64,000 bases of DNA from assembly GCA_963702475.1 (NCBI GenBank), contig CAVPCT010000004.1:32001-96000 (forward strand). Reading direction: 5' to 3'. Under the pieces are notes generated by a model. That model had not been told where the DNA came from, did not search any database, and saw nothing but the letters and a program-made list of their open reading frames with translations. Position 1 is the first letter of the stretch; each line of letters begins with the position of its first letter. Of this stretch, positions 22,307 to 40,762 are shown one piece after another. The position numbers were made by a program, and so were the translations under genes. The DNA comes from an uncultured Thermoleophilia bacterium (GTDB lineage: Bacteria > Actinomycetota > Thermoleophilia > UBA2241).

Positions 22307-22420
22307 CACCATCCGAATGGTGCGTTGGGTCCGTCGGCCCGCCGCGAGAATCCGCGTTGACAGCCACCGCCCGGATGCTATATTTGCGTCCACCATGTGG
22401 TGGCCACCAGCCGACTGGTG
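22307..22420. promoter_or_regulatory. Divergent promoter region with two TetR-type operators
   Basis: CACCATCCGAATGGTG (22307-22322), TTGACA (22357)-16-TATATT (22379) and CACCAGCCGACTGGTG (22405-22420). Confidence 0.7.
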
Positions 22421-22536: not shown

Positions 22537-23674
22537 ATGAAGGCCGTCGTGACCACCGGCAACGGCGGCTTCGACCAGCTCGACTACCGTGACGTGCCGA
22601 TACCTGTGCCGGCGTCGGGCGAGGTCCTGCTCCAGGTCCTCGCGGCGGGAGTGAACAACACGGAGATCAACACGCGGCTGGGCTGGTACTCCTCCTCAGT
22701 GACGGACAGCACCGAGAGCTTCGCCGAGACCCAGGCCGAAGCGGCCGAGGCCAAGGCCGACGGCGGCTGGGACCAGCCGACTCCGTTCCCCTTCATCCAG
22801 GGCACCGACTGCTGTGGCCGTATCGTCGAAGTCGGGCCGGGTGGAGACGAGAGCGTCCTTGGTAGCCGGGTCCTCGGTACGAGCCTGCATGCGACCGCTC
22901 GGGTACGGCTCGCTCGAGAACATCTGGATGGCCTCGGACTTCGACGGCGCGTTCGCGCAGTACGTGAAGGTCCCCGCCTCGGAGGTCTTCACCATCGAGT
23001 CCGATTGGAGCGACGTCGAGCTGGCAACGATCCCGTGCTCCTACGGCACAGCCGAGACCATGCTGCATCGCGCCGAGGTCGGCGAGGGCGACCGCGTCCT
23101 CGTCACCGGCGCGTCCGGTGGGGTGGGCTCGGCTGCGGTGCAGCTCGCCAAGCGGCGCGGCGCCCACGTCATCGCCGAGGACATCTACCACTTCAGGCAC
23201 GTGCGAGACCTGCCAGAGCCCGACGCGTCGCGCGTGCGCAGCGAGTGGCTGGAGCAGCTGCACGCCGCAGGCGCGGACCGCGTGGTGGACGAAGGCGACG
23301 ACATCGTCGCCGTGCTGGGGCACCAGTCCGTGGACGTCGTGGTGGACAACGTGGGGGGGCCGGCGTTCGCGAGCCTCGTAGAGGCGCTGGCCAGAGGCGG
23401 ACGGTACGCTTCATCCGGCGCGATCGCGGGTCCCATCGTGTCGTTCGACAAGCGCTCCTTCTACCTGAAGGACCTCACGTTCTTCGGCATCACGGCGTGG
23501 GACGAACCCGTGTTCCCGAACCTCGTGTCGTACATAGAGCGTCACGAGATCCGGCCGCTGGTGGCCAGGACCTACCCATTGGCGAAGATCGCCGACGCCC
23601 AGCGCGAGTTCCTCGAGAAGAAGCACCTGGGGAAGTTCGTCCTCGTTCCGCCTCAGGCAGAGCCCAGGGGCTGA
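22537..23674 (+). CDS. MDR-family (Zn-binding alcohol dehydrogenase-like/quinone reductase) oxidoreductase; apparent frameshift near 22877
   Basis: MKAVV...VLLQVLAAGVNNTE...QGTDCCG in one frame, then VLVTGASGGVGSAAVQLAK and HLGKFVL in another. Confidence 0.8.
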
Positions 23675-23946
23675 GACGCTGCCGGCCGAAGTGACCACTC
23701 CCGGCACACAGCCTCGGACACGTGAGTCCGCCGAGATCGAGAGCCGTCTGTGCGGGCATCCGCACAGCGCCTCCGGAAGTGTCCAGACCTGACGCCGGGG
23801 CAGGGTCGCCCTCGACCGCCGGGCCGCTGACAGCCGCCCGCGTGACGCGTGGAGTGTTGTAGGAGCACACGAGAGGAGAGTCCGGAGCCCGTGGGGAGGC
23901 GGGCTGCCAAGCCGATTCGCAAAGCGCAAGCAAGGGGGATTCAAGT

Positions 23947-25632
23947 ATGGCCAGTGAGAAGTACACGAAGGAATACGAGCACCAACTGGTGGACCTGGTC
24001 CGTCGGGGCAAGATGACGCGGCGCCAGATGCTCGTCAGGGCCTCCGTCTTCGGCCTCTCGGCGACGGTCGCCGGCCAGCTGCTGGCCGCCTGCGGCAGCG
24101 ACGAAGGCGGCGAGACCACGTCAGCCTCGCCGTCGGCTGCCGCCGGGCCCGAGCCCGTCATGGGCGGCACCCTCAAGGTCATCATCTCGCCGTCGATCAC
24201 CGACATCGACCCGGTCACGATCTACGACCAGGGCGGCATCACGCTCATCTCGCAGTTCTGCGAGTACCTCATCAACCTCAAGGACGACATGACGCTGGAG
24301 GGCCGGCTGGCGGAGAGCTGGACGCCGAACGACACGGGCGACGTCTGGACCTTCACGCTGCGCCAGGGCATCATGTTCAACGACGGCAGCCCCTTCGAGG
24401 CACCGGACGTCGTCTCCACGATGGACCGCCTCGTCGATCCCAAGAGCGGCTCGGCCGCCCAGGCCGCCCTGCTCGGTATCCTCTCCGTCGGCGGCACGCA
24501 GGCAGTCGACCAGTACACGGTCGCATTCAATCTCGACAAGCCGTTCGCGGACTTCCCGTACATGGTGTGCACCTCCTCGTACAACACCGTGATGCTGCCG
24601 CGAAACTACAAGGGCGATTGGGTCAAGAACCCCGTGGGCACCGGTCCCTGGCTGCTCGAGAAGTACGTGGCCAAGCAGTCGTGCACCGCCACCAAGAAGC
24701 CCGACTACTGGCGCAAGGACGAGCAGGGCCGGCAGCTGCCGTACATGGACCAGATCGACTGGATCATGATCGCGGACGAGTCGGCCTCCACGCTACAGCT
24801 CCAGTCGGGGACCGCGGACGTACAGGCCCAGACGGTCTTCCAGGGGGCGCAGCCCTTGTGGACCGACCCCGACATCCGGGTGGACATCTACCCGTCTCCG
24901 GGCATCCGCGAGCTCCAGATGAACACCCTGAAGGAGCCCTTCACGGACAAGAGGGTGCGCCAGGCAGTCGCCCTCAGCCTCGACCGCGTGGCGATCAACC
25001 AGGCGCTCTTCGACGGCAAGAGCATCATCGGCAACGACACCTTCTTCCAGACACCGCCGTACCCCGATCAGCCCCCGACTGTGGAACGCGTCCAGGATCA
25101 CGAGAAGGCCAAGGCGCTCCTGGCCGAGGCTGGGTACCCCGACGGTCTCGACGTCACGCTGACCGCTGAGGAGTACCTGGAAGTCCCCCAGTACGCACAG
25201 CTCATCCAGGCGCAGTGCAAGCCGGCCGGCATCAACGTCAAGATCCAGCCGATCCCGTACGAGCAGTGGTACGCCGGCGCCAACGACGTGACGCCGTGGC
25301 TCAACGTGCCGTTCGGCATCACCGAGTGGGGTCCGCGCCCGACCCCCGGCGTGTTCGTGCAGGCCATGCTCCTGCCCGAGAGCGCCTGGAGCTCCTCGCA
25401 CTGGAACAACCAGGAGTTCGCGGGCATCTTCGAGCAGTACATGTCCACCACCGACGAGGCCGCACGGCTCGATCTGGCCACGCAGCTCTCGACGATCCAG
25501 CAGGAGGACACACCCATCATCGTGGCCTTCTACATCACGCAGCTGCGTGCCCAGAAGAAGGCCGTGCATGGCATCACCGGTCCAGGCGCCTTCTACTGTG
25601 ACGTGTCCGGCGCATTCATCGCGAACGCGTGA
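23947..25632 (+). CDS. ABC transporter family-5 (peptide/nickel type) solute-binding lipoprotein with Tat signal
   Basis: MTRRQML twin-arginine motif, LLAAC lipobox, WTFTLRQG..FNDGSP and GTGPW. Confidence 0.9.
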   Translation: MASEKYTKEYEHQLVDLVRRGKMTRRQMLVRASVFGLSATVAGQLLAACGSDEGGETTSASPSAAAGPEPVMGGTLKVIISPSITDIDPVTIYDQGGITLISQFCEYLINLKDDMTLEGRLAESWTPNDTGDVWTFTLRQGIMFNDGSPFEAPDVVSTMDRLVDPKSGSAAQAALLGILSVGGTQAVDQYTVAFNLDKPFADFPYMVCTSSYNTVMLPRNYKGDWVKNPVGTGPWLLEKYVAKQSCTATKKPDYWRKDEQGRQLPYMDQIDWIMIADESASTLQLQSGTADVQAQTVFQGAQPLWTDPDIRVDIYPSPGIRELQMNTLKEPFTDKRVRQAVALSLDRVAINQALFDGKSIIGNDTFFQTPPYPDQPPTVERVQDHEKAKALLAEAGYPDGLDVTLTAEEYLEVPQYAQLIQAQCKPAGINVKIQPIPYEQWYAGANDVTPWLNVPFGITEWGPRPTPGVFVQAMLLPESAWSSSHWNNQEFAGIFEQYMSTTDEAARLDLATQLSTIQQEDTPIIVAFYITQLRAQKKAVHGITGPGAFYCDVSGAFIANA

Positions 25633-25999
25633 CGAGAGCGGCCTGAAGAGGAGCTCGACCAGACGCAGGATTCTCGGGACGGCGCACTCCACGAGTCGCC
25701 GGTCGCCGCATGCGGCCAGACACCGCTCCCCGTGTCGGCAAGCGTGTGCGCACTTGCCGAGGTGCCGGCCGGCGTGGACTTCGCGCCCACGCCGGGAGTC
25801 CTGCGCCGCGTAAGGCGGGCCCCGAACCCCGGCGCCGGCAGTCCCCCGCCGGCGCCGGGGTCGCCCCGCCCCAGAGCCACCGAAGTCGACGCACCGGGTC
25901 GCATATTAGTCGTAGGGAAGACGGTCCTCGGTAATCGTATGCTGTCGTCAGGCCGACTGACAGAACATCAGGCCAGCATGACGCGTCCTCGGCACTAAT

Positions 26000-26044
26000 T
26001 GACCGGTCAGTCCGTTTGCCATCAGGCGGCGCCGTGTGTATGGT
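26000..26044 (+). promoter_or_regulatory. Probable promoter of the second SBP gene with an upstream palindrome
   Basis: TGACCGGTCA palindrome (26000-26009) and TTGCCA-17-TATGGT; a similar TTGCCA...TGTGTATCGT occurs near 36226-36254. Confidence 0.5.
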
Positions 26045-26127
26045 GAGCAACGTGGGGGAATCCGGCGCGATTCGGCACCGCGCCGGCCCAGCTCCAGGAG
26101 ATATGAATGATGGGGAGGCGTGCTTCG

Positions 26128-27819
26128 ATGGCTAACGACAATCACGATAACAGCGTCGACTACATGGTGGACCAGGTGCGCAAGGGCAAGATGACGCGGC
26201 GGCAGCTCATCGCCGGCGCCGGCGCGCTCGGCCTGGGCGCCACCGCGATGGGCAGCTTGCTCGCCGCTTGCGGAGAGGAAGAGGGCGGCGGCACGACGGC
26301 CTCGCCGGCGCCGAGCGGCAGCGGCGCACCCGAGCCGGTCATGGGCGGCATGCTCACGGGTATCATCCCGCCGTCGATCACCGACATCGACCCGGTCACG
26401 ATCTACGACCAGGGCGGCATCGTCCTCGTCCAGCAGGTCTGCGAGTACCTCATCGCGCTGGACAACTCCAACGGCCTCAAGCCGGGCCTCGCCACCGAGT
26501 GGTCGGGCAACGAGGACGCCTCGGTGTGGACCTTCAAGCTCCGCGAGGGCGTCACGTTCAACGACGGCAGCCCGCTCGAGGCGGAGGACGTCGTGGCCAG
26601 CCTAGATCGGTGCGTGGACCCGGACAGCGGCTCCGGCGCCCTCGCCGCCCTGCAGGGCATCCTCTCCCCTGGGGGCACCAAGGCCGTCGACACCATGACG
26701 GTGGAGTTCGCCTTGGACAAGCCGTTCGCCGACTTCCCGTACCTGGTCTGCCAGTCGTCGTACAACACCTGCATCCTCAAGCGCGACTACGCCGGCGACT
26801 TCGCGAAGAACCCGATCGGCACCGGTCCCTTCATGGTCGAGTCGTACAACGCCAAGCAGAAGGCCGTGATGAAGAAGAACCCCACCTACTGGGGTACCGA
26901 CGCCAACGGCAACAAGCTTCCGTACCTCGACTCGGTCACCTGGGTCATGGTGCAGGACGAATCGGCCGCCAACCTGCAGCTGCAGTCCGGCGCCGTCGAC
27001 TTCCAGCCGCAGACGGTGTTCCAGGGCTCCCAGGCGCTGTTCGCCGACCCCAACCTGCGCGTGGACATCTACCCCGGCTCGGGCATCCGCGAGGTCGCCT
27101 TCAACCTCGAGAAGGAGCCGTGGAAGAGCGCGCCCAAGGAGCTCCGCCAGGCGGTGGCATGGTGCCTCGACCGCGAAGCCATCAACATGGCTCTTTACGA
27201 CGGCCGCAGCCTCCTCGGCCATGACACCTTCTGGGAGCCGACGGTGTTCCCCGGCAGCCCCGACGTCCCCGAGCCGCGTATGCAGGACTACGCCAAGGCC
27301 AAGGAGCTTCTGGCCACGGCGGGCTTCGCCGACGGCGTCGAGATCGAGCTGACGGTCGCCAAGTACCTCGAGAACCCGCAGCTGGCCCAGCTCATCCAGC
27401 AGCAGTGCAAAGAAGCCGGCATCACCGTCACGATCAACCAGATCAGCTACGACGCCTTCTACGCCGGTGGCGAGAACGACACGCCGTGGCTCAACGCCCC
27501 CATGGTCATCGTGGAGTGGGGCAGCCGGCCCACGCCGGGCGTGTTCGCCCAGGCCATGCTCATGCCGGGCGTCCCGTGGAGCTCGTCGCACTGGGACAAC
27601 GCCGAGTTCGCCAGCACGTTCGACCAGTACATGGCGACCACGGACGAGACCAAGCGCACGGAGCTGGCCACCCAGCTCTCCACCATCCAGCAGGACGACA
27701 CGCCCATCATGGTGCCGTTCTACATCACGCAGCTGCGCACGCAGAAGAAGAACGTGTTCGGCATCCAGGGACCCGGCAACTTCTACTGCATCATGTCCGA
27801 AGCCTTCATGGCGAGCTGA
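26128..27819 (+). CDS. ABC transporter family-5 solute-binding lipoprotein with Tat signal (paralog 2)
   Basis: MTRRQLI and LLAAC; clearly paralogous to 23947-25632. Confidence 0.9.
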   Translation: MANDNHDNSVDYMVDQVRKGKMTRRQLIAGAGALGLGATAMGSLLAACGEEEGGGTTASPAPSGSGAPEPVMGGMLTGIIPPSITDIDPVTIYDQGGIVLVQQVCEYLIALDNSNGLKPGLATEWSGNEDASVWTFKLREGVTFNDGSPLEAEDVVASLDRCVDPDSGSGALAALQGILSPGGTKAVDTMTVEFALDKPFADFPYLVCQSSYNTCILKRDYAGDFAKNPIGTGPFMVESYNAKQKAVMKKNPTYWGTDANGNKLPYLDSVTWVMVQDESAANLQLQSGAVDFQPQTVFQGSQALFADPNLRVDIYPGSGIREVAFNLEKEPWKSAPKELRQAVAWCLDREAINMALYDGRSLLGHDTFWEPTVFPGSPDVPEPRMQDYAKAKELLATAGFADGVEIELTVAKYLENPQLAQLIQQQCKEAGITVTINQISYDAFYAGGENDTPWLNAPMVIVEWGSRPTPGVFAQAMLMPGVPWSSSHWDNAEFASTFDQYMATTDETKRTELATQLSTIQQDDTPIMVPFYITQLRTQKKNVFGIQGPGNFYCIMSEAFMAS

Positions 27820-27849
27820 CCGGGCCAGGACTGATCCGCACCTTCTGAC

Positions 27850-27889
27850 CACGAGGCCCCCGGGACGCATGCGTCCCGGGGGCCTCGTG
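27850..27889. terminator. Perfect 40-bp palindrome between convergent genes, probable terminator
   Basis: CACGAGGCCCCCGGGACGCA|TGCGTCCCGGGGGCCTCGTG followed by CTTCTTCT. Confidence 0.8.
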
Positions 27890-27945
27890 CTTCTTCTCGG
27901 GTCCGGCCCTGCCGGGGTGTCGGTCTTGGCGCTCGGCCACCAAGC

Positions 27946-29394
27946 TCACACCCGTCCCAGAGCCTCAGCGTCGGCCACGATCCGTGACATGCCTGTCTCC
28001 ACATCGGCGGGCAGGGGCTCGGGGCGATGCTCTCTGAGCACACGCCGCGCCTCCTCAGACGCTCGCGCGTAGACGTCCGTCGCGCCGATGCTCACCCAAT
28101 CGTCGCGCACGCGGCGGTCGAGCAGAAGCGGCCGGCTCATCTCTCTCATATGGCGCAGTGTCGCGCCCAGGCTCAGGAAGTCGCCGAACGGACCGACGGC
28201 CTGGATGTCGGCCACGGCCAGCGCATCGTCGTCGGTGCGAACGCCGCCGAGGCAGTGGGAGATCATCCGCGCGAACTCCGCGTCCAGCATCAACTGCGCG
28301 AAATCGAAGGTGAGGCCAGCTTCGATCATGCCCATGCCGTAGATGACGTCGGCGCCGCTGAGAGCCGCCAGGAGAGCCGAAAGCGTCTTCTCGTGCCCGG
28401 TCTGCGCGTCCGACACCTTGCCGTCGCTGAGTCCGCCGGCGACCATGCTGGGCAGTCCGTGCCGCCGGGCAAGCTGTGCAACGGCGGCGCTGACGAGTGC
28501 GAGCTCAGGCGAACCCCCTGTCGCGGACCCGAACCGCAGGTCAAGTGCCGTGGAGGCGCTCCCGTACACCACAGGAGTGCCCGGCCCAGTGAGCTGCGCG
28601 AGCGTGACGCCGGCCAGCACCTCCGCCTCGTGCGTGACCAGGGTCCCGGCGAGGGTCACCGGGGTGGAGCCTCCGGCCATGGCCATTGAGACCACGTTGA
28701 CGCCGACACCATGGCGTGCGCCCGCCATGATGACCTCACAGCAGTCGGCGAGCAGCTTGAGCGGGCTCACCGGGCACACCAGGAACGACAGGAGTGAGCC
28801 TTCGCGTACGGCCTCCGGTGAGCCCAAGATGGCCCTCTGGAGTTCCACGATGCGCTCGGCAACGTAGCCGTTCTGCGCACCCAGGAACGCGTGCTTCGTG
28901 GTGTTGCGCAGAATGGCATCGGCGTTGTGCAGCGCCGCCACGTGCTGGGGCACGTCGTGGGGCACAAGAGCCCGCACGCACACGGCGGCCTCGTCGAGCG
29001 CGTCCACTGCACGCGCGGCCGTTCCGACGTCCGCCTTCGTGGATGGGCGGCGATCACCCGAGAACGGGTCCACAAGGCAGATGCCTTCGCCGAAGTTGGT
29101 GAACGTGACCGCGCCGTTCCCGAAGACGGCGTCGTGCGAACGCTCCCGACCATGGGCCACCACGCGCGAGGGAGCCGTCTGCAGCGCCTCGTCCACGACC
29201 GTCGCAGGGATGCGCACGATCCGCGTGCCTCGGTCCACGCGGCAGCCACGAGATGCGAAGATCTCGACAGCGTCCCAGGACTCCACGAACACGCCGGTGG
29301 CCTCGAGCACGTCGAGCGCAGCGGCCTGGATGCGACCGATGTCATCGCTGCCCAGCAGCTCGAAGAACGGACGGCGACCGCCCTCGCCACTCAT
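27946..29394 (-). CDS. MttB-family methyltransferase without pyrrolysine (Leu at the Pyl site)
   Basis: LPSMVAGG-L-SDGKVSDAQTGHEKT; close paralog of 10524-11951. Confidence 0.9.
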   Translation of the reverse strand: MSGEGGRRPFFELLGSDDIGRIQAAALDVLEATGVFVESWDAVEIFASRGCRVDRGTRIVRIPATVVDEALQTAPSRVVAHGRERSHDAVFGNGAVTFTNFGEGICLVDPFSGDRRPSTKADVGTAARAVDALDEAAVCVRALVPHDVPQHVAALHNADAILRNTTKHAFLGAQNGYVAERIVELQRAILGSPEAVREGSLLSFLVCPVSPLKLLADCCEVIMAGARHGVGVNVVSMAMAGGSTPVTLAGTLVTHEAEVLAGVTLAQLTGPGTPVVYGSASTALDLRFGSATGGSPELALVSAAVAQLARRHGLPSMVAGGLSDGKVSDAQTGHEKTLSALLAALSGADVIYGMGMIEAGLTFDFAQLMLDAEFARMISHCLGGVRTDDDALAVADIQAVGPFGDFLSLGATLRHMREMSRPLLLDRRVRDDWVSIGATDVYARASEEARRVLREHRPEPLPADVETGMSRIVADAEALGRV

Positions 29395-29503
29395 CACGAC
29401 GCGCGTTCGCCGCGCGGCCGGCCACCTCGCGATGACGAGGGACCATGCAGGCCGACCCGCACTATCCGCCGCAGCATAGCCGGTTCCGGTCTCCAGCTGC
29501 TGC

Positions 29504-30994
29504 TCACACCGCGCTTGCGGACAGAACGTCCGCGCACCCCAAGTCGCGTTCCGCCTTGCTGATGACGGCGCGCATCTCCTCGAGGGCGCCCTCGGGCAGC
29601 GGCGTTGGTACATGCGTATCGAGGATGCGCCTGGCGTGCTCGAGAGCACGATCGGCGACGTCTCTCGAGCCGTCGGCGACCCAGTCCTCGCGCACGCGGC
29701 GGTCCATCAGCGCCGGCCGGCTCTGCACACGCATGTGGCGCAGGGTGTCCTCGTGGCTGAGGAAATCGCTGAACGGGCCAACCTCGTGGATGACATCCAG
29801 GGCCATGGTCGCGTCGTTGACGGGCACGCCACCGACGCAGAACTTGACCAGGTCGGCGAACTCCGCGTCGATCACGAGCTGCGCGTAGTCGATGGTCATG
29901 GCGGTCTCGAGCATCCCCGCACCATAGATCAGGTTGGCGCCTGCCAACGCCGTCAACATGCCGGTGAGGGTCTTCTCGTGGCCGGACTGCTCATCCGTCA
30001 GCTTGGAGTCCGCCTACAACCCGGCGACCCAGCTCGGCAATCCGTAGTGCCGGGCGAGGCAGGCGATCGAAGCGTTGATGAGGGCGCACTCGGGACTGCC
30101 CACCGTCGCTGTTGCGGACCGGAGGTCCAGAGCCGTCGTCGAACTGCCGTAGATGAGAGAGGCTCCCCTGTGCGTCAACTGCGCCAGGGTGAGGGCCGAG
30201 AGCACCTCCGCGTTGTGCATGACGACCGCGCCCGCGAGGTTCACCGGCGACGAGCCCCCGGCCAGCGCCATCGAGACGACCGACGTCGGCACCCCCTCTC
30301 GTGCTCCCTCGATGAGAACGTCACACACGTCGCGCGGAAGCTTGAGCGGGCTTATCGGACAGACCACGTACGTGAGGATCGGACGCTCTCGCAGGCTCTC
30401 GGCGCCGCCCGCTATCGCTGCGGCCATCTCGCGCATGCGCGTGGCCAGATAGCCCGTGATCGGCCCGATGACGGCGTGCTTCGAGCAGTTGGCGAAGATG
30501 GCCTCCGCGTTGTGCAGGGGGCCCACCTGCTCGGGGACGTCGTGAGCACCGACGGGCCGCAGGATCGCGTCGATCTGAGGCAGCGCGTCGATGACCCGCG
30601 AGCAGTCGCCCACATCCCTCTTCATCGTCAACCGCCGCGCGCCGGTCTCGGGATCATTGACGAAGACGCCCTCACCGAAGTTGAGGAAGTTGACGCGGCC
30701 GTCCTCGAGCACCACGTCGTGCTTCGGGTCCCGGCCGTACATGATGAACTGTGACGGCGTCGAGCGTATGGCATCCTCGACCACGCAGCCGGGGATCTTC
30801 ACCACGCCGTCCGCCTCGACCCTGGCGCCCGCGCCGGCGAGGATCTCCTGGGCCTCCTCGGACTCGACGAAGACGCCCGTGCGCTCGAGCACCTCGAGTG
30901 TCCCGAGGTGGATATCCGCAAGCTCATCGGGCGTGAACACATCCAGACGCAGACCCCCGCTCGCGCGATGTCCCGCGTGAAGGCTGCGCTTCAC
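29504..30994 (-). CDS. mttB: Pyrrolysine-containing MttB family methyltransferase, copy C; in-frame TAG at 30016-30014
   Basis: GTG start at 30994 after AAAGGAGG. LPSWVAGL-TAG-ADSKLTDEQSGHEKT continues in frame to TGA 29504, and the TAG is again codon 327. Confidence 0.92.
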
Positions 30995-31072
30995 CGTGGC
31001 CACCTCCTTTCCAGGTGACTCCGCCTGCATCACGATGCCGAGCGCCCATCCTTCCGCCGACAACGAGTCCGC

Positions 31073-32440
31073 TCAAGTCAGGAGCCATGAAGGCACGCTC
31101 TCGCGAGCGAGCACGTCCGCGACGGTCTCTCTGCGGCGGACGACCGCCGCGCGCCCGTTCGACACCATCACGGTAGCCGAGCGGGGAATGGCGTTGGACT
31201 GGCAGGCGAATCCCTCGTTGTACGCCCCCATGTCCAGGAAGGCGAGCACATCGCCGATCCGCATCGCAGGCAGTTCGCGCTCTTTGACGAGCACATCCGC
31301 CGCGTTGCACGTCTGCCCGGCGATGTCGACGACCTCGGTGCCCTCACGGTTCGGGTCGTTGGCTATGACGACGTGGTGCACGCGGTTGTAGGGATCGAAG
31401 GGGTCGCCCATCTCGTTGGTGTTGCCGTCGACGTACACCCACTTCTTCTTGGCGAGGTTACGGTCGTCCTTGAGACTGCCGACCTTGACCACCCACATGC
31501 CGGCGCTGTCGACGCAGTAACGGCCGGGCTCGGCCAACAGGACAGGCACAGGGATGTCGTGCTCCTTGCACTTGGACACGATCGCGTCACTGATGACCGC
31601 GGCGTAGTCCTCGATGGAGGGGGGAGCCTCCTGCCCAACGCGCTCCGGGACGAAGCCGCCCCCGATGTTGAGGTACTGAGGAGCCCAGCCGAACCTCTTC
31701 TTGATGAGGCCGATCATGTCGATCAGTTCCTCGGTCTCCTCGCGGAAGTATCCCGCGCGACGTGGGATACCGCCGTGGTACATGACCCCTTCGAGCGAGA
31801 TGTTCTCCACCTCCAGGGCACGCTCGACCTCGGCGAAGTAGTTCTCGGGATCGAGCCCGAACTTGAAGGTCCGCTCCCAGTAGGTGGGGCTGATGCCCTC
31901 GGGATAACGCGGGTCCACGTACACGACTTCTTCAATGGCGTTCAGCGGCAAGCGGATCCGCAGGGACACACGCGCGGTCTTGCCCATGTCTCCCGCCAGC
32001 TCCACGACCTTCTCGAGCTCGTCCTCGTGGTCCACCTGGATCATGACGCCGGTGTCGATCGCGGCGCGCAGGGCATCCTCAGCCTTGTTGGCGCCGTTGA
32101 GCACGATCTTCTTCGGGTCGGAGCCGGCCATCATCGCCACCGTCAACTCACCCAGACCGAACGCGTCTCCGCCGGCACCCTCCTTGACGACGACCCGGCG
32201 CACGGCCAAGCCCCACTGGGCCTTCATGCCGACACACACGATCATCTCGTTGGGATAGTGGTCGGCGAACGCCTTCTGCATCCGCCGAACCCTGCTCCGG
32301 ATGGTGTTCTCGGAGATGACGAAGAGTGGGGTGCCGTACTGTTCTGCGAGGTCGACGACAGGGAACCCCTCGACCTCGAGCAGTTCGTCCTGGTTGACCC
32401 TGAGATACGGCCCGAGATCGGTCCACACGCTCGTTTCCAA
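31073..32440 (-). CDS. Fold-type III PLP decarboxylase (diaminopimelate/ornithine/arginine decarboxylase family), divergent
   Basis: YGTPLFV, GMKAQ (PLP Lys), KFG, LNIGGG, EPGRY, GQTCNAAD and MGAY motifs. Confidence 0.85.
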   Translation of the reverse strand: METSVWTDLGPYLRVNQDELLEVEGFPVVDLAEQYGTPLFVISENTIRSRVRRMQKAFADHYPNEMIVCVGMKAQWGLAVRRVVVKEGAGGDAFGLGELTVAMMAGSDPKKIVLNGANKAEDALRAAIDTGVMIQVDHEDELEKVVELAGDMGKTARVSLRIRLPLNAIEEVVYVDPRYPEGISPTYWERTFKFGLDPENYFAEVERALEVENISLEGVMYHGGIPRRAGYFREETEELIDMIGLIKKRFGWAPQYLNIGGGFVPERVGQEAPPSIEDYAAVISDAIVSKCKEHDIPVPVLLAEPGRYCVDSAGMWVVKVGSLKDDRNLAKKKWVYVDGNTNEMGDPFDPYNRVHHVVIANDPNREGTEVVDIAGQTCNAADVLVKERELPAMRIGDVLAFLDMGAYNEGFACQSNAIPRSATVMVSNGRAAVVRRRETVADVLARESVPSWLLT

Positions 32441-32507
32441 CGCTCTCGCCTCCTTCCAATCGCCGAAGCCGGCGCAACCAGGGCCGGTCGGCACGATCCC
32501 TCGCCGG

Positions 32508-33173
32508 TCAAGCGGCGTTTTCGGCCCTCTTCTCCGCGACAAGCTGCGCCGCGAGTGCGACGCCCTCTTCGGCCGTGCCGGCGTACCCGTCCGCACCGAT
32601 CTGCACGGCCCATTCCTGGGACACCGGCCCGCCGCCTACCATGACGATGTAGCGCTCTCGGACGCCCAGCTCCGAGAGGATCTCCACGACCTCCTTCTGG
32701 CTCGGCATCGTCGTCGTGAGGAGCGCCGACATGCCGATCAGGTCGGCGCCCACTGCTTCTGCTGCATCGAGATAGGCCCCGGCGGACACGTCCGCCCCGA
32801 GGTCGTGGACCTCGAAGCCGCGGACCTTGAGCAACATGGCGAAGATGTCCTTGCCGATGGTGTGCACGTCCCCGGCCACGGTGCCCACGACGGCGACCCC
32901 TGCGCGCTTCAGGCCTCCGCCCGCCTTCTCGATCTCCGGCTCCAGCACCTGCATGACGGCGTTGAAGGTGTCGGCGGCGGCGATGAGTTCGGGCAGGAAG
33001 CACTCGCCCCTCTGGAACCTGTCCCCGATGGCGGCCATCCCGGCGGACAGACCGTTCTCGACCGCATCCAGCGCGTCGTGGCCCTGAGCCACGACCTGTC
33101 GGGCGACGTCGACGGCGCGCTGCCCGTCCGCCTCGATGATCGCGAGTTTGAGATCCGCGTTGAGTTGGTCCAT
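32508..33173 (-). CDS. Methyltransferase cognate corrinoid protein (MttC/MtmC-like)
   Basis: GTVAGDVHTIGK (DxHxxG), MSALLTTTM, VMVGGGP and IGADGY motifs. Confidence 0.92.
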   Translation of the reverse strand: MDQLNADLKLAIIEADGQRAVDVARQVVAQGHDALDAVENGLSAGMAAIGDRFQRGECFLPELIAAADTFNAVMQVLEPEIEKAGGGLKRAGVAVVGTVAGDVHTIGKDIFAMLLKVRGFEVHDLGADVSAGAYLDAAEAVGADLIGMSALLTTTMPSQKEVVEILSELGVRERYIVMVGGGPVSQEWAVQIGADGYAGTAEEGVALAAQLVAEKRAENAA

Positions 33174-33300
33174 CTTCCTTCCTCTCAGGTGTCGGGCGCG
33201 GGTGCCGGCTCGGCGTCGGATCGGACGGCGACCAGGTGCGACTCGTCCCGCCCGCAGCCGGCACCCCTGGCCCGCACGACTCCGGGCTGTCGCTGCGTGA

Positions 33301-34674
33301 TCAGACCAGTCGGACTCCCACCTCAGCCAGCTCCCGTGAGACGGACTCGCGGAGACTGACGTACTCCGGGCTGGGCTGCTTGCGATGGATGTCCCAGCAC
33401 TCCTCGTATTTCTGGCCGATCGACGCGGTGGCCAGCGTGCCCTCGTAGCGGTCGAGCAGGCGCCGGACCACGTCGTTGGCCTCTTTGCGCGTCATCCCCA
33501 CCGCCCCGTGGGCCACGTCGCCTGAGAAACGGGGCTCGCTGGGCGTGAAGTGATCGACCTGGGTGCCCTTGGCGCTGCCCGTGGCGGTGACGTGGCCACC
33601 GGAGACGACCGTCGCCATCACGTCGGCAGCGTTCTCGTAGAAGAACATCTCCGTCATGGGACCGTGAGCGGTGTAGTGGTCGACGAAGACGGGGAAGTGG
33701 CTGTTGCGGGTCATGGCCTGCACGCTCACCGACTTGGCCCAGATGGTCTCTCGCGTGCTGGTGCACCCGAGGTTGAAGTGCGTGGGGAAGGTGAGGAGGG
33801 CGTCCGCCTGCAGTGCGATGATGCCGCTGAGGAGATAGGCGGCGTTCGCCACGGCGACGCCCTCCGGCCCGCCGCAGTAGCCGCCGAGGATGGGGGCGCA
33901 CTCCGCGACGAGTCCTCCTCCCGTGCCGATGACCCAGGCCGCCTCGTTCAGCCGCTCATAGCCGAGCTTGAACTCGGCGGTGTGCCCAACGACCCAGGTG
34001 TCGCGGGTCGTCAGGCCGAAGGAGCTGCCGGCGATCTTGGCGACGTCGGACCCGGCGGTCGCGATCGAGTTCATGATGGGCAGCCCGGAGCGGTTGCCGC
34101 GGCGCAGGGCGTCCTTGCCGAGGCCGGTGACCCGCATGGCTGCGATCACCTCGAGTGGAGTCCCGGTGCGGACAGCGCGTCCATTGAAGCTCGCCAGACT
34201 CGGAGCGGTGATCGAGTCGGCCAGCGGCAGATACAGGGCGTAGGCCTCCATGATGCTCGAGTAGAGCTCCTCAGTAGAGACCGGCGCCCCGAGAGCGCCC
34301 AGCCAGCACCACGGCCGGGTGTCCGAGTCCGGCTGCCGCGGCACGAGGGTGCGCTGCTCCTTGCCCTCGCCGAGGACGATCCGGGCCGGGGCATGGTCGA
34401 GCGCGTCCCTGAGCTCGTCGTCCGTGAACCTCATGATGCGCTGCGAATCCGGGCAGTACAGGCCCACGTCCCGGAACAGCTCGAAGCCCGCTTCGAACAC
34501 GCGATCGGCAAGATCGTCATCGTGCGGCACAGGAGTGGAGGGATCGTACCCGATGTCGTGCTCCGCCACGACTTCCTTGAGCTTCGGGACCAGGACCTTC
34601 ATGAAGAAGTCCATCTCTTTGCAGTACCGGCCGGTCATGGCGCGGTCGATGACCTCCAGATAGCTGATCATCAT
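33301..34674 (-). CDS. Monomethylamine methyltransferase MtmB-like protein lacking pyrrolysine
   Basis: 457 aa with DRAMTG, PILGGYCGGPEG, GCTSTRE, GPMTEM, GSAKG and GQKYEECWD matching MtmB. GNRSGLPI-M aligns to AGRPGMGV-O. Confidence 0.85.
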   Translation of the reverse strand: MMISYLEVIDRAMTGRYCKEMDFFMKVLVPKLKEVVAEHDIGYDPSTPVPHDDDLADRVFEAGFELFRDVGLYCPDSQRIMRFTDDELRDALDHAPARIVLGEGKEQRTLVPRQPDSDTRPWCWLGALGAPVSTEELYSSIMEAYALYLPLADSITAPSLASFNGRAVRTGTPLEVIAAMRVTGLGKDALRRGNRSGLPIMNSIATAGSDVAKIAGSSFGLTTRDTWVVGHTAEFKLGYERLNEAAWVIGTGGGLVAECAPILGGYCGGPEGVAVANAAYLLSGIIALQADALLTFPTHFNLGCTSTRETIWAKSVSVQAMTRNSHFPVFVDHYTAHGPMTEMFFYENAADVMATVVSGGHVTATGSAKGTQVDHFTPSEPRFSGDVAHGAVGMTRKEANDVVRRLLDRYEGTLATASIGQKYEECWDIHRKQPSPEYVSLRESVSRELAEVGVRLV

Positions 34675-34819
34675 GCCCCTCTCTCCTGGTCGGTCCTGGT
34701 CGCAGAGTGAACGTCTGTTCTCCCGAGGCCGGAGTGCTGAAGCTCCGGTCGCCTGGCCGCTACCCTGCTGGCTCCGTGCCATCGCAGCCTGCGTCTTCAG
34801 GGCCACCTTGGCGCCAGCG

Positions 34820-34848
34820 ATGCTATACACCAAACGGATGGTGGTCAA
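34820..34848 (-). promoter_or_regulatory. Promoter of the mtmB-like operon with a TetR operator in the spacer
   Basis: Minus-strand TTGACC-17-TAGCAT; CACCAAACGGATGGTG at 34828-34843. Confidence 0.75.
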
Positions 34849-35034
34849 GTGGGCGGGCCGGCAATTCCGCGCGGCGACCCCCGCGTCGTTCCGGCCGGGC
34901 CGCCCTCCCTCTGGGCGCTCTGAGGCGGGGAGCCTTGCTCGAGTGGCGACGGGGTTGGTACGCTGGCCAGGTCGTAGCCGGGTCCAACGTGCCGCTTGCA
35001 CGCCCGGGATCGCTCACGGAGGCAAGGAGGAGTT

Positions 35035-35670
35035 TTGGCAGTCGAGACACCGCCGGTGGATCCACTGGAGGACCTGCCGCCTACTGCCAGGCGAATCGTC
35101 GAGACGACCCGGCGCCTTCTGATCGAAAAAGGCTACGGCTACCTCAGCATCGAGAACATCGCCAACGAGTGCGAACTCAACAAGACGGCGATCCGCTACT
35201 ACTTCCGGAACAAGGCCGGGCTCATGGAGCTGGTCGTCGACGCCTGGATCTACGACAACATCCGGCATCTCGAATCCTTGTTCGCGATCCCTTCCGAACC
35301 TCTCCTGGGCAACGCTGACAGCGTGCACGCGTTCATGCTGGCCAAGCTGGAGATGATCAAGGACACGGAGACCTACCTGGCGTTTTTCGAACTCCTTCCG
35401 GCATCGCTACGGGATCGGCGGAACAGCGGCCGCATCGAGGATCTGTACGAATGGTCGGCGGAAGCCTATGTGCAGTTGTTCGCCTCGAGCCTTCCCGGCA
35501 TGGATGCGGCACAGATCAGGACCTTCTCCCGACTCCTCTTCGCGGTGGTCGACGGACTGGGTGCGCAGCTCGTGATCTCCTCGGAACGCTTTCCCCCGGA
35601 CCCGCCTCTCGACCTCTTCTCGGAGATCCTCATGGCGTGGGTGCGGTCTCGGCACACACAGAGCGCCTGA
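35035..35670 (+). CDS. TetR family transcriptional regulator (paralog 2)
   Basis: HTH nearly identical to 21547-22215 (LLIEKGYGYLSIENIANECELNKTAIRYYFRNK). Confidence 0.9.
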   Translation: MAVETPPVDPLEDLPPTARRIVETTRRLLIEKGYGYLSIENIANECELNKTAIRYYFRNKAGLMELVVDAWIYDNIRHLESLFAIPSEPLLGNADSVHAFMLAKLEMIKDTETYLAFFELLPASLRDRRNSGRIEDLYEWSAEAYVQLFASSLPGMDAAQIRTFSRLLFAVVDGLGAQLVISSERFPPDPPLDLFSEILMAWVRSRHTQSA

Positions 35671-35923: not shown

Positions 35924-36538
35924 CTCCTGCTGAAGTGACCGCCCGACCGGCGGAGGCAGGGGCGTAGAGAAGTGTGCCTCGCCCCGGACTCGGCCCCCAC
36001 GCCGGCGTCGTCGAGAACGCAGCTCACCGAGTCGAGGCGGGCGCGACGCACGCCCCTTCGTCCGCACGAGCAGTGGGACATCGAATCGGTGGGCAGCGCA
36101 ACGTAGAGAACAATCTTCGGAAGAATAGTCTCAGGACGAGTTGATATGCTGCACCTAGGTCGTCTTGAAGAACATCTGGAGTGCCTGATTGTGTCCAGCA
36201 ACTAACCACTCGTTCAACTCAGGAGTTGCCATCGGCGTTCGCGATGTGTATCGTGTCGCCGAGCGTCGCAGCGGCAACCCACGGTGGGCGACCGCGAGGC
36301 CGGCGACGTCCGCGGAATCCTGGCGATGTGGCGGGCACAGGGGTCTTGAGATTCATGCAGCACAGGGAGAGCAGGACCGACCGATGACCAGCGAGCGCGA
36401 TGCCTGCAGAACCGTCGCTCTCGTCACCCGACGGTGCGTGCGAAGCATGAAGGCGCACGCCACACGGCACTCCCGCCGTGAGTCGCCGTGGGTCACCAGG
36501 CCGATCGTCACTGAGCTGAGGGGCTGAGGGAGTCCGGG

Positions 36539-37486
36539 ATGCTCCGTCTCATCGGTCGCCGGCTGCTGCTCATAGTACCGACGCTGATCCTCGCGTCGAT
36601 ACTGATCTTCGCACTCGCGGAGGTGCTGCCCGGCGACGTGGGACGCTCCATCCTGGGGCCCTACGCCACCCAGGAGCAGGTCGAGATCCTCAACGAGCAG
36701 CTCGGGGCCGACAAGCCGCTCTACGAGCGCTACCTCACGTGGGCCGGCAACTTCGTCACCGGCGACTGGGGCGAGTCGCTCCTCCTCAGGGTACCGGTCT
36801 TCCCCACGGTGATGAAGGCCCTCGGCAACTCGCTCGTGCTCGCCGCCTTCGCCCTCATCATCATCGTGCCGACGTCCATCCTGCTGGGCGTGTGGGCCGG
36901 GCTCAGGCGAGACAGCGTCCTCGACCGCACCATCACCATCTCGACGCTCTCGATGACGGTGATCCCCGAGTTCGTGAGCGGCGTCATCCTCCTCTACGTC
37001 TTCGCGGTGTGGCTCAAGTGGCTGCCGGTCACCGCCATGCCGCCCGACGGCTCGCCCTTCTACGAGCGCCTCTACTACCTCATCCTCCCGGCCATCCCGC
37101 TGATGTTCCTCGAGCTGGGCTACATCGCCAGGATGGCGCGCGTCGGCACCGTGCAGGTGCTCGCCATGCCCTACATCCGCACCGCCGTGCTCAAGGGCCT
37201 GCCGCGGCGCCGGGTCGTCACCGGGCACGTGCTGCGCAACGCCATGGTGCCGACCGTCACCGTCATCGGCAGCCAGGTCGGCTGGCTGATCGGCGGCCTC
37301 GTGGTCATCGAGACGCTCTTCGTCTACCCCGGCATCGGCAAGCTCATGGTCGACGCCGCGCAGACGCACGACCTGCCCATGCTGGAGGCCGCCGTGCTCA
37401 TGGTCGCCATCATCTACATGGTCTCCAACCTCATCGCCGACATCGTCGTTGCCCTGCTCAACCCGCGCATCAGGATGGGCGCCTGA
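36539..37486 (+). CDS. Peptide-type ABC transporter permease (DppB/OppB-like)
   Basis: Hydrophobic helices, LPGD, GDWGES and the YIRTAVLKGL EAA loop. Confidence 0.9.
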   Translation: MLRLIGRRLLLIVPTLILASILIFALAEVLPGDVGRSILGPYATQEQVEILNEQLGADKPLYERYLTWAGNFVTGDWGESLLLRVPVFPTVMKALGNSLVLAAFALIIIVPTSILLGVWAGLRRDSVLDRTITISTLSMTVIPEFVSGVILLYVFAVWLKWLPVTAMPPDGSPFYERLYYLILPAIPLMFLELGYIARMARVGTVQVLAMPYIRTAVLKGLPRRRVVTGHVLRNAMVPTVTVIGSQVGWLIGGLVVIETLFVYPGIGKLMVDAAQTHDLPMLEAAVLMVAIIYMVSNLIADIVVALLNPRIRMGA

Positions 37487-37487
37487 C

Positions 37488-38508
37488 ATGGCTGACGAGC
37501 GCCCCACACCCTTCGGCCCCGAGCCGGACCTCGAAGGCCGCACCGGCCAGTTCGGCGACGACCCCGAGATGCTCGAGCTGCGCGCCGAGGCGGCCGCGGC
37601 CGGCCGCGAGGCCGTCCTGCCCGGCACCGGCGCGCGCCAGGAGAAGGTGCTCGAAGCCGACGCCGCGGCGGCGGCCGAGCAGAAGCGCCAGCGCCGCTAC
37701 CTGGTCCGCGCGCTGCTGCGCAGCCCCACCTTCATGACCGGCCTCGTCATCGTGCTCTTCTGGGTGTTCATGGCGGCCTTCTCCACGCTCATCACGCAGG
37801 ACCCCTACGCCCAGGACGCGCTGAACTCGCTGAAAGCGCCCGAGCCCCTCGCACTGGTTCGGCACCGACGACCTCGGGCGCGACGTCTTCGCGCGCGCCA
37901 TGGCGGGCGCGCGCACGGTGCTCATCATCGCGCCCCTGGCGACCGTCCTCGCGCTTCTCTGGGGCGCCGTCATCGGCCTCATCGCCGGCTTCTGGCGCGG
38001 CCTTACCGACGAGGTCATCATGCGTCTCGTCGACGTGCTCCTGGCGCTGCCGATCATCATCACGAGCATCCTCATCCTCTCGCTGCTCGGCACCGGCACG
38101 GCCATCATCATCGTCACCATCGGCGCCCTCTTCACGCCGGTCGTCAGCCGCACCGTGCGCGCCGCCGTGATCGGCGAGCGCGAGCGCGAGTACGTCATGG
38201 CGGCGCGCCTGCGCGGCGAGCGCTCGGCCTTCGTCATGGCCCGCGAGATCCTCCCCAACATCACCCAGCCCATCGTCGTGGAGGGCACCGTGCGCCTGGG
38301 CTACGCGGTGTTCACCGCCGCCACCCTCTCCTTCCTCGGCTTCGGCCTCGCCCCACCCAGCCCCGACTGGGGCCTCACCATCGCCAACCAGCGCGTCTTC
38401 CTGCAGATCGCCCCGTGGACGGTGCTCTTCCCGGCGGCAGCGCTGGCCTCCCTGGTGGTGGCCGTCAACCTCATCACCGACGGTCTCGGAAGGGTGTGGA
38501 GCAAGTGA
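37488..38508 (+). CDS. Peptide-type ABC transporter permease (DppC/OppC-like); apparent frameshift near 37845
   Basis: HWFGTDDLGRDVF, EYVMAARLRG, LPN and LSFLGFG..PP.PDWG motifs. Confidence 0.85.
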
Positions 38509-40762
38509 GCGCTGAAGAGACCGTCCACAGCAACAGCGCCGCACCGCAAGAGGAGCCCGCCGCCCTCGACGTCCGCGACCTCGAGGTCACGTTCCACCGC
38601 CGCGGACGCGACCTGCCGGTGCTCAAGGGCGTGACCTTGCAGATCGCCCGCGGCGAGGCCTACGGCCTCGTCGGCGAGTCCGGCTGCGGCAAGACGACGC
38701 TGGCCATGGCGGCGATGCGTTACCTGGCCGCCAACGGCACCCTGGACAACGGCCGCGTGCTCGTCGACGGCAAGGACGTCAGCACGCTGGACGACGAGTC
38801 GCTGCGCAAGTGGCGCGGCGGCAAGGTCTCGATGGTCTACCAGGACCCGACGCCAGGCGCTGACCCCGGCGATGCGCATCGGCGACCAGCTCGCCGAGGT
38901 CTACCACTTCCACGAAGGCCTCGACAAGAACGCGGCGATCGAGAAGGCCCGCGAGAGCCTGCGGCGCGTGGCAATCCCCGATCCGGAAGCCACCCTGCGC
39001 CGGTACCCCTTCGAGCTCTCCGGCGGGCAGCAGCAGCGCGTGGTCATCGCCATGGCGCTCTCCGTGAACCCGCGCCTGCTCATCCTCGACGAGCCCACCA
39101 CCGGCCTCGACGCCACCGTCGAGGCCGAGATCCTCGACCTCATCGATGAGCTGCGCGGGCGCATCAACGCCGCCATCCTGCTGATCACGCACAACCTCGG
39201 GCTCGTGGCCCGGCTCTGCGAGCGCGTCGGCGTGCTCTACGCCGGGCGCCTCGTCGAGGAGGGCCCGGCCCGCGACATCTTCACCGACCCGCGCCACCCC
39301 TACACCATGGGCCTCTTCCGCTGCGTGCCGCGCTTCGGCATGAACAAGACCGACGCCGCCCTGCAGACCATCCCCGGCACCCTGCCGGCCCTCGGCGAGC
39401 CGCTCGCCGGCTGCGTCTACTCGGCCCGCTGCCCCATGGCCAAGGACGTCTGCGTGCGCCGCGAGCCCGACCTCTACGCCTACCCCGGCGAGGCGGCACG
39501 CAGGGCTGCGAGACGGCCCTGGCCATGGACCCGGACCCGGCCGCCTACTCGCCGCACCACGCGAACCCTGTGGGCGAGGGCGCGCGCCACACGCGCTGCT
39601 ACTTCCCCGCCGAAGTCGCCGAGATGCCGCAGATGGTCCCCGTGCTGGCCGCCAGCCTCGAGGAGCGCGGCGCCCGCGAGGCAGACGTGCTCAAGATCGA
39701 CGCCGTCGAGCGCACCTTCAAGGACGGGCGCAAGAGGCTCACCGCCGTGCACCAGGTCTCGCTGGCCCTGCAGAAGGGCGAGACCTTCGGCCTCGTCGGC
39801 GAGTCGGGTTCGGGCAAGACCACCTTGGCCAAGTGCGTCACCGGCCTCCTCGCCCCCGACGCAGGCACGATCGAGTTCGAGGGTGGTGCGCTGCGGCCCA
39901 CGGCGGCGAAGCGCTCGCAGGACGCCCTCAGGGCCATCCAGATGGTGTTCCAGAACCCGGACTCCACACTCAACCCGGCGTGGACGACGCGCGCCATCCT
40001 CACGCGCGCCGTGCGCAAGCTGGGCGGCGCGCGGAGCGGCTCCGTGCGCGCCAAGGTCGACAACCTCTCAGCCGGGGTGCGCGTCGAGCCGCGCTTCCTC
40101 TTCCAGAAGCCGATGGAGCTCTCCGGCGGGCAGAAGCAGCGCGTCGCCATCGCCCGCGCCTTCGCCGGCGACCCCACGCTCGTCGTTTGCGACGAGCCCG
40201 CCAGCGCCCTCGACGTCTCCGTGCAGGCCAGCATCCTCAACCTGCTCGTCGAGCTGCAGACGAAGGAGAAGGTCTCCTACGTGTTCATCAGCCACGACCT
40301 CGCAGTGGTGCAGGTACATCTCAGACCGCATCGGCGTGATGTACCTCGCCGAGCTCATCGAGGTCGGCTCCTCGGAAGAGGTCTTCAGCGCCCCACACCA
40401 CCCCTACACCGAGGCCCTGCTCAGCTCCATCCCCAAGCTGGACTTCGAGAGCCCCAGCCAGCGCATCCCGCTGCGCGGGACGATGCCGAGCCTGAGCGAC
40501 CCGCCGAGCGGGCTGCCGCTTCCATACCCGCTGCCACCGCTACCTCGGCGACATCTGCGCGACCCAGGAGCCGCCCGAGCAGGAGACCGGGGACGGCCAC
40601 ATCTACGCCTGCCACATCCCGCCGGACGAGCTCCTGCGGCTGCAGACCGAGACCATGGCGAGCGGCGAGGGCGCGAAGCGCGTCGCCGACATGCAGGCGC
40701 GTCAGGCCGAGGAGATGGCGGCCGGCGAGGCCGCCCTCAGCGAAGGGCCAAGCGCCGGCTGA
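38505..40762 (+). CDS. Fused double ABC ATPase (DppD/F-like); several apparent frameshifts
   Basis: Two Walker A motifs (GESGCGKT, GESGSGKT), two LSGGQ signatures and two HPYT motifs spread over different frames. Confidence 0.8.

Follow-up and report, generated by a model that had tools for sequence, protein, structure and literature searches.

The window analyzed here is a stretch of 64,000 nucleotides from the metagenome-assembled genome (MAG) G000 of an uncultured Thermoleophilia bacterium (GCA_963702475.1), corresponding to C4:32001-96000 (contig CAVPCT010000004.1); coordinates given below are window positions unless another contig or locus is named. The MAG comprises 4.3 Mb in 9 contigs, with a G+C content of ~70%, a completeness of 93.78% and a contamination of 6.49%. 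WhiB gave no match in it, and Spo0A none that exceeded the cut-off. Between 27946 and 34674, five co-oriented genes on the minus strand encode, in gene order, an MtmB homologue, a corrinoid protein, a decarboxylase, a pyrrolysine (Pyl)-type MttB and a further MttB with leucine at the Pyl site (termed Leu-MttB). They probably form one repressor-controlled operon, whose combination of three corrinoid-dependent methyltransferases with an altered amino-acid decarboxylase points to an undescribed breakdown route for a methylated nitrogen compound. The operon and its flanks contain the following features.

27850-27889, no strand assigned: perfect hairpin with an 18-bp stem, between convergent genes and 3' of the last operon gene
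27946-29394, minus strand: MttB with Leu (CTC) at the Pyl column (PF06253, 299.9 bits; TIGR02369, 611.2 bits)
29504-30994, minus strand: Pyl-type MttB of 496 residues including Pyl (TIGR02369, 673.4 bits against a cut-off of 525)
30014-30016, minus strand: single in-frame TAG (Pyl codon), aligned exactly with Pyl334 ('X') of 7XCL
31073-32440, minus strand: fold-III pyridoxal-phosphate (PLP) decarboxylase of 455 residues, of a subfamily derived from diaminopimelate decarboxylase (DAPDC), with Orn_Arg_deC_N and Orn_DAP_Arg_deC domains
32508-33173, minus strand: corrinoid protein (MtxC) with PF02310 (B12-binding) and PF02607 (B12-binding_2)
33301-34674, minus strand: Pyl-free methyltransferase 1 (MT1) of the MtmB family, 457 residues (PF05369, 286.8 bits, E = 4e-85)
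34848-34820, minus strand: promoter-like site TTGACC-17-TAGCAT, the sole sigma-70-like match in 27700-35100
34828-34843, no strand assigned: candidate TetR operator, palindrome CACCA-N6-TGGTG, conserved with G020 and repeated in the window
34996-35670, plus strand: divergent TetR-family regulator with a BetI-type C-terminal domain (PF00440, 1.3e-10; PF13977)

Open reading frames together with profile matches confirmed the five-gene set and its order as proposed in the initial annotation of this DNA. Ribosome-binding sites and the lengths of homologues served to predict the gene starts; the Pyl-MttB starts with GTG, 8 nt after AGGAGG, and the decarboxylase with TTG, 8 nt after GGAAGGAGG. The corrinoid gene starts 127 nt downstream of the MtmB homologue, and the following intergenic gaps are 67, 78 and 109 nt. 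DNA near-identical to the window is present in metagenome contigs from sediment, freshwater sediment and wastewater (runs from 8 studies). At about 31019-31021, 33245-33246 and 34932, Illumina contigs from as many as four public runs have an additional base compared to the window; all three places are non-coding under the proposed gene starts.

The promoter ahead of the genes is the single sigma-70-like site found in 27700-35100 (0.3 +/- 0.6 expected), and the hairpin at 27850-27889, the only terminator-like one in the same interval, is likely a two-way terminator. In G020, a second species of the genus (54 genomes compared), the -10 element and spacer of the promoter are kept and the -35 element is not. 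Alignment of the promoter with the orthologous intergenic region of G020 revealed that only a 28-nt block aligns, with diverged flanks; this block, which holds the palindrome CACCA-N6-TGGTG, extends over the spacer and -10 element of the promoter. With a CCG/CGG core, this palindrome is matched 11 times, counted by strand, at 6 sites of the window (0.54 +/- 0.77 expected), and five of the six sites lie in promoter regions (3530, 21428, 22307, 22405 and 34828). Outside the window, the CCG-core palindrome occurs once in the genome, at C7:49482, where none of the neighboring genes inspected is obviously related. In G020, the same palindrome precedes the MtmB-like gene and the adjacent ATP-binding cassette (ABC) operon. 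The operator predicted in the initial annotation is thus represented by a conserved block and a recurring palindrome, and these, together with the single promoter, support the cluster as one regulated unit. The divergent TetR protein has an orthologue in G020 (69% identical) that is likewise divergent from the operon, and both TetR proteins of the window possess BetI-type C-terminal domains. The divergent TetR protein is a candidate repressor of the operon.

The Pyl-MttB retains Gly110 (FGEG), Met249 (VVSMALAGG) and Tyr364 (NLIYGAGM) in the alignment with 7XCL/7XCM. The roles of such residues in MttB, and the invariance of Gly110 and Tyr364 across 66 Pyl-MttBs, are described in PMC9842639. The TAG at the Pyl column is conserved in the G020 orthologue. 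Decoding of this codon as Pyl is plausible in the host, judged from a PylS C-terminal domain (314.6 bits, cut-off 178.15), PylB (438.1 bits, cut-off 348.2) and a tRNA-Pyl(CUA) gene adjoining pylB; the genome also has tRNA-Sec. The Pyl column is covered by 60 MttB-family loci of G000, and 15 of them have TAG at it, for example C3:301192, C3:382927, C3:1125989, C6:6, C6:108122, C6:373699, C7:35707 and C9:316268, and two of the 15 look frameshifted. In addition, there are two Pyl-MtbB genes (C2 ~39.9-41.4 kb and C3 ~655.7-657.4 kb) and one Pyl-MtmB gene (C9 ~301.3-302.8 kb), making the Pyl proteome unusually large for a bacterium.

The Leu-MttB scores 349.7 bits against 7XCL and only 239.7 bits against MtgB (2QNE), and shares 50-56% identity with three Pyl-MttBs of the window (tblastn). 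It is 73% identical to the other Leu-MttB of the window (10524-11951). The 53 MttB matches of the genome that align over at least 400 residues were used for a quick IQ-TREE tree, shorter ones being excluded. In this tree, 13 Pyl rows and two Leu rows form one clade (support 99); within it, the two Leu-MttBs group together (support 100), and their sister group (support 99) consists of five Pyl-MttBs, the operon's own among them. This nesting inside the Pyl-MttB clade indicates that the Leu-MttBs probably arose by a secondary, recent loss of Pyl beside Pyl-bearing sisters. As the Leu-MttB also passes the TIGR02369 cut-off, passing it is no proof of function. Pyl-free MttBs characterized so far act on quaternary amines, and with a sense codon at the Pyl site, the Leu-MttB would be expected to do the same.

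The MtmB homologue aligns end to end with Methanosarcina barkeri MtmB (1L2Q), has no in-frame stop, and carries Met at the column of Pyl202 ('X'). Of the 120 closest homologue clusters, 105 likewise have Met at this column, 14 have Leu and one has Phe. The subfamily comprises at least 120 clusters at >= 48% identity in public data, and the few clusters that bear organism labels come from several phyla. According to PMC13044021, most Pyl-free MtmB proteins have no assigned function, and MtqB, the only characterized one, demethylates the quaternary amines tetramethylammonium and choline. Because of MtqB and the characterized Pyl-free MttBs, we read both Pyl-free MT1s of the operon as probable quaternary-amine demethylases. 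The corrinoid protein scores 195.6 bits on TIGR02370, under the cut-off of 215.3. It is encoded by the sole corrinoid gene of the window, against seven MT1 genes (one MtmB-like and six MttB-family), and tblastn across the whole window gave no second copy, which is in line with the earlier notion of three methyltransferase types sharing one corrinoid protein. RamA-type activase genes lie at three loci outside the window, one of them adjoined by a Pterin_bind gene, and no match to an MtrH-type methyltransferase 2 (MT2) was found in the genome, which is 93.78% complete.

The decarboxylase possesses the catalytic core of its fold, with K83, H232, E314-R317 (EPGR) and C388 invariant in the alignment of homologues, and its best match in the PDB is the DAPDC of Methanocaldococcus jannaschii (197.7 bits). 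On the lysA model TIGR01048 it scores 292.9 bits, below the cut-off of 297.9; a separate lysA (479 bits) lies at C3:685819-687192, in addition to two DokD-like paralogues. Compared to the genome's own LysA, the operon decarboxylase and its orthologues have DPFDP for RP..Y, CNA for CES, and a subfamily insert, RYPEGISPxYWERTFKFG. Arg285 and Glu315 of the Thermotoga maritima DAPDC contact the distal carboxylate and the distal amine, respectively (PMC8277567); motif alignment to the genome's own LysA places Asp356 at the equivalent of Arg285 and Asn389 at that of Glu315. Among 84 full-length homologue clusters at >= 45% identity, DPFD[PAS] is found in 75 and CN[AGS] in 72, and beyond these the identity of homologues falls from 48% to 39%. 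Given the true lysA elsewhere, the replacement of both DAP-recognition residues and the score below the cut-off, this protein is not LysA, which agrees with the initial annotation. It is a member of a distinct, conserved subfamily with a predicted acidic distal pocket, and not a normal diaminopimelate (DAP) decarboxylase.

Two side observations concern this protein family. One DokD-like paralogue (L014:7944-9362, where L014 is C2:120000-131000) adjoins two non-Pyl MttB genes (C2:123602-126514), so that L014 is a second decarboxylase-MttB neighborhood within G000. A protein of 741 residues, P0090, combines GCV_T domains with a decarboxylase domain 63% identical to the query, and may be a genuine fusion or else stem from a gene call that ran together neighboring dimethylglycine-dehydrogenase (DMGDH)-like and decarboxylase genes.

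Further copies of the operator lie at four other promoter regions. The units behind them, and the ABC genes downstream of the divergent TetR gene, make up the following wider set together with the operon.

3530-18867, plus strand: operator (3530-3545), then genes for a PrpE-like ligase, a Pyl-MttB (5589-7130), an omega-transaminase, methylmalonate-semialdehyde dehydrogenase (MMSDH), a cupin, the second Leu-MttB (10524-11951), propionyl-CoA carboxylase beta and alpha, methylmalonyl-CoA mutase and MeaB
18901-22377, minus strand: TetR paralogue, operator (21428-21443), third Pyl-MttB (19579-21072) and methylmalonyl-CoA epimerase
22703-27819, plus strand: MDR-family reductase and two SBP_bac_5 solute-binding proteins (23947-25632 and 26107-27819), behind the operators at 22307 and 22405
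36515-40806, plus strand: permeases and ATPase of a Dpp/Opp-type ABC system, following the divergent TetR gene

The operators thus define a putative regulon of ~35 kb that combines uptake, methyltransferases (three Pyl-MttBs and two Leu-MttBs among the MttB family) and enzymes leading from propionyl-CoA to succinyl-CoA. The transaminase is of the class-III omega type, and the MMSDH is of the CoA-acylating type (TIGR01722, 300.1 and 157.7 bits on two pieces). No genes for lysine, cadaverine, 5-aminovalerate or glutarate metabolism were seen in the regulon. An apparent in-frame TAG read-through in the aldehyde dehydrogenase was rejected as an artefact of frame choice, the true cause being a frameshift near 9655. 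Elsewhere in the window (52483-57622), a further MttB-family gene, which encodes Trp at the Pyl column, has histidine ammonia-lyase and formiminotransferase genes in its vicinity, a neighborhood that hints at a link to a histidine-derived betaine.

Comparison with G020 showed a closely similar arrangement: the divergent TetR gene (69% identical) is followed by the genes for the MtmB-like protein (83%, Met kept), the corrinoid protein (74%), the decarboxylase (88%) and the Pyl-MttB (81%, TAG kept). Beyond the Pyl-MttB lie a TetR paralogue and then PrpE, Pyl-MttB, transaminase and MMSDH genes. Two other species have an MtmB-like gene, 47-48% identical and with Gln at the Pyl site, together with a corrinoid gene, and in G006 the MtmB-like and corrinoid genes are followed by a non-Pyl MttB and a transaminase, with no decarboxylase.

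Orthologues of the decarboxylase with 63-68% identity were also found at nine alphaproteobacterial loci (L003-L011), some of which terminate at contig ends. Within 10 kb, an MttB-family gene is present at eight of the nine, and at five of the nine it is an orthologous MttB whose Pyl column holds Met; one or two DMGDH-like genes of DAO+GCV_T architecture are present at six, an amidase at seven, and Dpp-type ABC components at all nine. The cassette joins the decarboxylase to one or two DAO+GCV_T genes and an MttB (Met), along with an amidase, a GntR/FCD regulator and Dpp-type ABC genes; a corrinoid protein, a Pyl enzyme and an MtmB homologue were not found at any of the nine loci. The pairing of the decarboxylase with a DMGDH-like gene recurs on two short metagenome contigs. 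This independent association in Alphaproteobacteria supports, from gene neighborhoods, that the decarboxylase is genetically tied to N-demethylation. The central idea of the initial annotation, a decarboxylation coupled to N-demethylation, is therefore supported by the operon itself, by the synteny with G020 and by the alphaproteobacterial neighborhoods.

Taken together, we regard it as an even call that the five genes constitute one TetR/BetI-repressed operon, within the ~35-kb regulon, for the anaerobic corrinoid-dependent catabolism of a methylated ammonium compound. As to the chemistry, we infer that the substrate carries or yields an alpha-amino-acid group. The Dpp-type ABC system would import the methylated compound, and the two Pyl-free MT1s (the MtmB homologue with Met and the Leu-MttB) would remove a methyl group from its quaternary nitrogen; each may serve its own form of the substrate, such as the compound prior to decarboxylation and the one that results from it. 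The Pyl-MttB would then demethylate the resulting tertiary amine, maybe trimethylamine (TMA) itself or a substituted dimethylamine. The single corrinoid protein would be loaded by all three MT1s, and an MT2 and a RamA-type activase, encoded elsewhere, would unload it and keep it active. The DAPDC-like decarboxylase, with its acidic distal pocket, would turn the alpha-amino-acid group into a primary amine, from which the omega-transaminase, MMSDH, PrpE-like ligase, propionyl-CoA carboxylase, epimerase and mutase could lead to propionyl-CoA and succinyl-CoA. A search of the available literature gave no link of MttB with DAPDC, and a broader search of the Pyl and MttB literature, extending over titles and the beginnings of abstracts, returned nothing on such an operon.

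Several observations weigh against this interpretation. Conservation of the gene order, which the initial annotation had put forward as a check, holds in part: four of the five genes are ordered alike in G020, but decarboxylase orthologues (E <= 1e-60) occur in only two of the 54 genus genomes, G000 and G020, and the operon of G020 is without a Leu-MttB. No member of the MtmB subfamily was matched at E <= 1e-120 in 400 other sampled genomes of the phylum. The alphaproteobacterial binding proteins share 22-30% identity with those of the window, over long alignments. At four metagenome loci with decarboxylases 51-54% identical, tblastn found no transferase, corrinoid or binding-protein genes of the window type; Pfam matches of ten picked genes at L040-L042 revealed different neighborhoods, such as carboxyl transferase with OAD-beta, thiolase, or an MFS transporter. 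At the fourth, L043, an omega-transaminase adjoins the 52%-identical decarboxylase, which, like the transaminase of G006, speaks in favor of the interpretation. Because these relatives sit elsewhere, the link between decarboxylase and demethylase holds only for the clade at >= 63% identity. The Pyl-MttB itself looks like an ordinary TMA enzyme, with the equivalog cut-off passed and the key residues kept, and with ~60 MttB-family and many corrinoid genes in the genome, mixed clusters could partly reflect local amplification. Finally, the transaminase (frame change at ~7600) and the MMSDH (~9655) are each split over two frames within 7131-10125 and could be pseudogenes. Assembly error is a plausible cause of these frameshifts, since Illumina contigs from four runs show 1-nt indels against the window.

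One alternative is a plain methylotrophy operon for quaternary amines and TMA. Here an MtqB-like enzyme, perhaps with the Leu-MttB, would act on tetramethylammonium, choline or a common betaine, the Pyl-MttB on the TMA produced, and the decarboxylase would be a passenger, for instance from polyamine or D-amino-acid metabolism. The precedent of MtqB (PMC13044021) fits, as do the reported invariant residues and the passed TMA equivalog cut-off of the Pyl-MttB, and the two Pyl-MtbBs and one Pyl-MtmB elsewhere complete a route from TMA to ammonia in a genome very rich in MT1-corrinoid modules. The passenger role is compatible with the unrelated contexts of the 51-54%-identical decarboxylases, but not readily with a gene that lies mid-operon between gaps of 67 and 78 nt, stays 88% identical and unchanged in position in G020, and has orthologues independently placed near MttB-family and DMGDH-like genes in another phylum. 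Moreover, the common operator links the operon to carbon-skeleton catabolism, which is needless for TMA. We therefore consider plain methylotrophy rather unlikely.

The stepwise route favored in the initial annotation, in which the non-Pyl MttB, the Pyl-MttB and the MtmB homologue would act in turn on tri-, di- and mono-methyl-lysine (or ornithine, arginine or diamines), is a good deal less probable. Its strength lies in the decarboxylase, which has lost the Arg for the distal carboxylate of DAP and gained Asp residues (DPFDP), as would suit a cationic side chain, and in the presence of three MT1 enzymes with one corrinoid protein; at L003 and L011, an MttB-family gene (in pieces, with weak fragments in L011) and two DMGDH-like genes would likewise make three steps. 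However, the MtmB homologue is without Pyl, and hence without the known means of activating a secondary amine. Since Pyl is present in only one of the three enzymes, and the other two should use quaternary nitrogen in the way of MtqB (PMC13044021), the assignment of the three types to tri-, di- and mono-methyl forms appears unlikely. Nor is a methyl-lysine, methyl-ornithine or methyl-arginine substrate favored: the co-regulated genes end in propionyl-CoA and methylmalonyl-CoA enzymes and suit a C3/C4 skeleton, no cadaverine or glutarate route was seen among them, and the literature search gave no link of MttB with trimethyllysine. That the five genes belong to no single pathway but to a mosaic, partly decayed accessory island built by duplication and transfer is very improbable, for although the sporadic distribution, frameshifted neighbor genes, heavy paralogy and MAG contamination would suit it, the five genes are intact and full length against solved homologues, the operator is conserved between species and among its sites, synteny with G020 is kept, and the frameshifts may be assembly indels.

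Returning to the catabolic operon for a methylated ammonium compound, a more far-reaching version can be drawn, which we think unlikely as a whole. In this version, the regulon would suffice for the whole anaerobic breakdown of a methylated ammonium compound of the amino-acid type, the decarboxylase, as a new family derived from DAPDC, would accept a cationic or methylated side chain, the Pyl-MttBs would act on substrates other than TMA, and the Leu copies would be recent switches from tertiary to quaternary amines. Candidate substrates are a trimethylated diaminobutyrate or ornithine-like compound, homoserine betaine, or a precursor of beta-alanine betaine. If true, the expanded Pyl-MttB paralogues, acting on substituted tertiary amines, would provide the first non-TMA substrates for a Pyl enzyme, and the Leu-for-Pyl copies, ~50% identical and in the same operons, would document a recent switch from tertiary to quaternary chemistry.

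Corrinoid-dependent amine demethylation governs the release of TMA and methane precursors in sediments, wastewater and guts, and most proteins of the MttB and MtmB families are still without an assigned substrate. The present locus is a compact test case, since it combines a Pyl enzyme, a ~50%-identical Leu sister and a Pyl-free MtmB homologue with one corrinoid protein, and the replacement of Pyl by Leu offers a direct test of whether quaternary substrates mimic the Pyl-amine adduct. It also draws attention to a conserved, unnamed decarboxylase subfamily, labelled 'diaminopimelate decarboxylase' in databases, whose link with N-demethylation extends over two phyla or more. For identifying the substrate, the locus offers cheap handles in its operator palindrome and in its pairs of BetI-type regulators and solute-binding proteins.

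Among known systems, the MtmB homologue resembles MtqB of the MtqB/MtqC pair of Methanococcoides methylutens Q3c, a tetramethylammonium and choline:corrinoid methyltransferase (PMC13044021). They both belong to the MtmB family, lack pyrrolysine and have a cognate corrinoid gene adjoining; both hosts also have a Pyl-MttB for the tertiary amine formed. Unlike MtqB, the present protein has a bacterial host and shares its operon with a decarboxylase and two MttB-type genes. The Pyl-MttB corresponds to the Pyl-dependent TMA methyltransferase MttB of the MttB/MttC pair of M. barkeri (7XCL/7XCM; PMC9842639), with TAG at the Pyl334 column, Gly110, Met249 and Tyr364 kept, and 396.9 bits to 7XCM. However, residue 111 is Glu instead of Thr, one corrinoid protein is held in common with two Pyl-free MT1 enzymes, the bacterial genome has 15 MttB loci with TAG, this gene included, and its nearest sister group contains Leu-for-Pyl copies. 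The Leu-MttB shares a sense codon at the Pyl site with the non-Pyl MttBs MtgB, MtcB, MtpB, MtyB and MthB, but groups with the Pyl-MttB clade and not with MtgB. The accessory enzyme of this operon is a PLP decarboxylase, compared to the kinase MthK, which is described in PMC12155760 as tailoring the substrate within the MttB-family (MthB) cluster. Similar to LysA and the D-ornithine/D-lysine decarboxylase DokD, the decarboxylase has fold III, the PLP Lys, the His, EPGR and the catalytic Cys; it differs from LysA in the score below the cut-off, the exchanges of R285 for Asp and E315 for Asn, and the subfamily insert. Aerobic betaine demethylation clusters in Alphaproteobacteria are of the dimethylglycine- or sarcosine-dehydrogenase type. 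The alphaproteobacterial cassette, with its MttB, DAO+GCV_T demethylase, amidase and Dpp-type ABC system, can thus be regarded as an oxidative counterpart of the corrinoid route proposed here, but its loci yielded no match to a corrinoid protein, a Pyl enzyme or an MtmB homologue.

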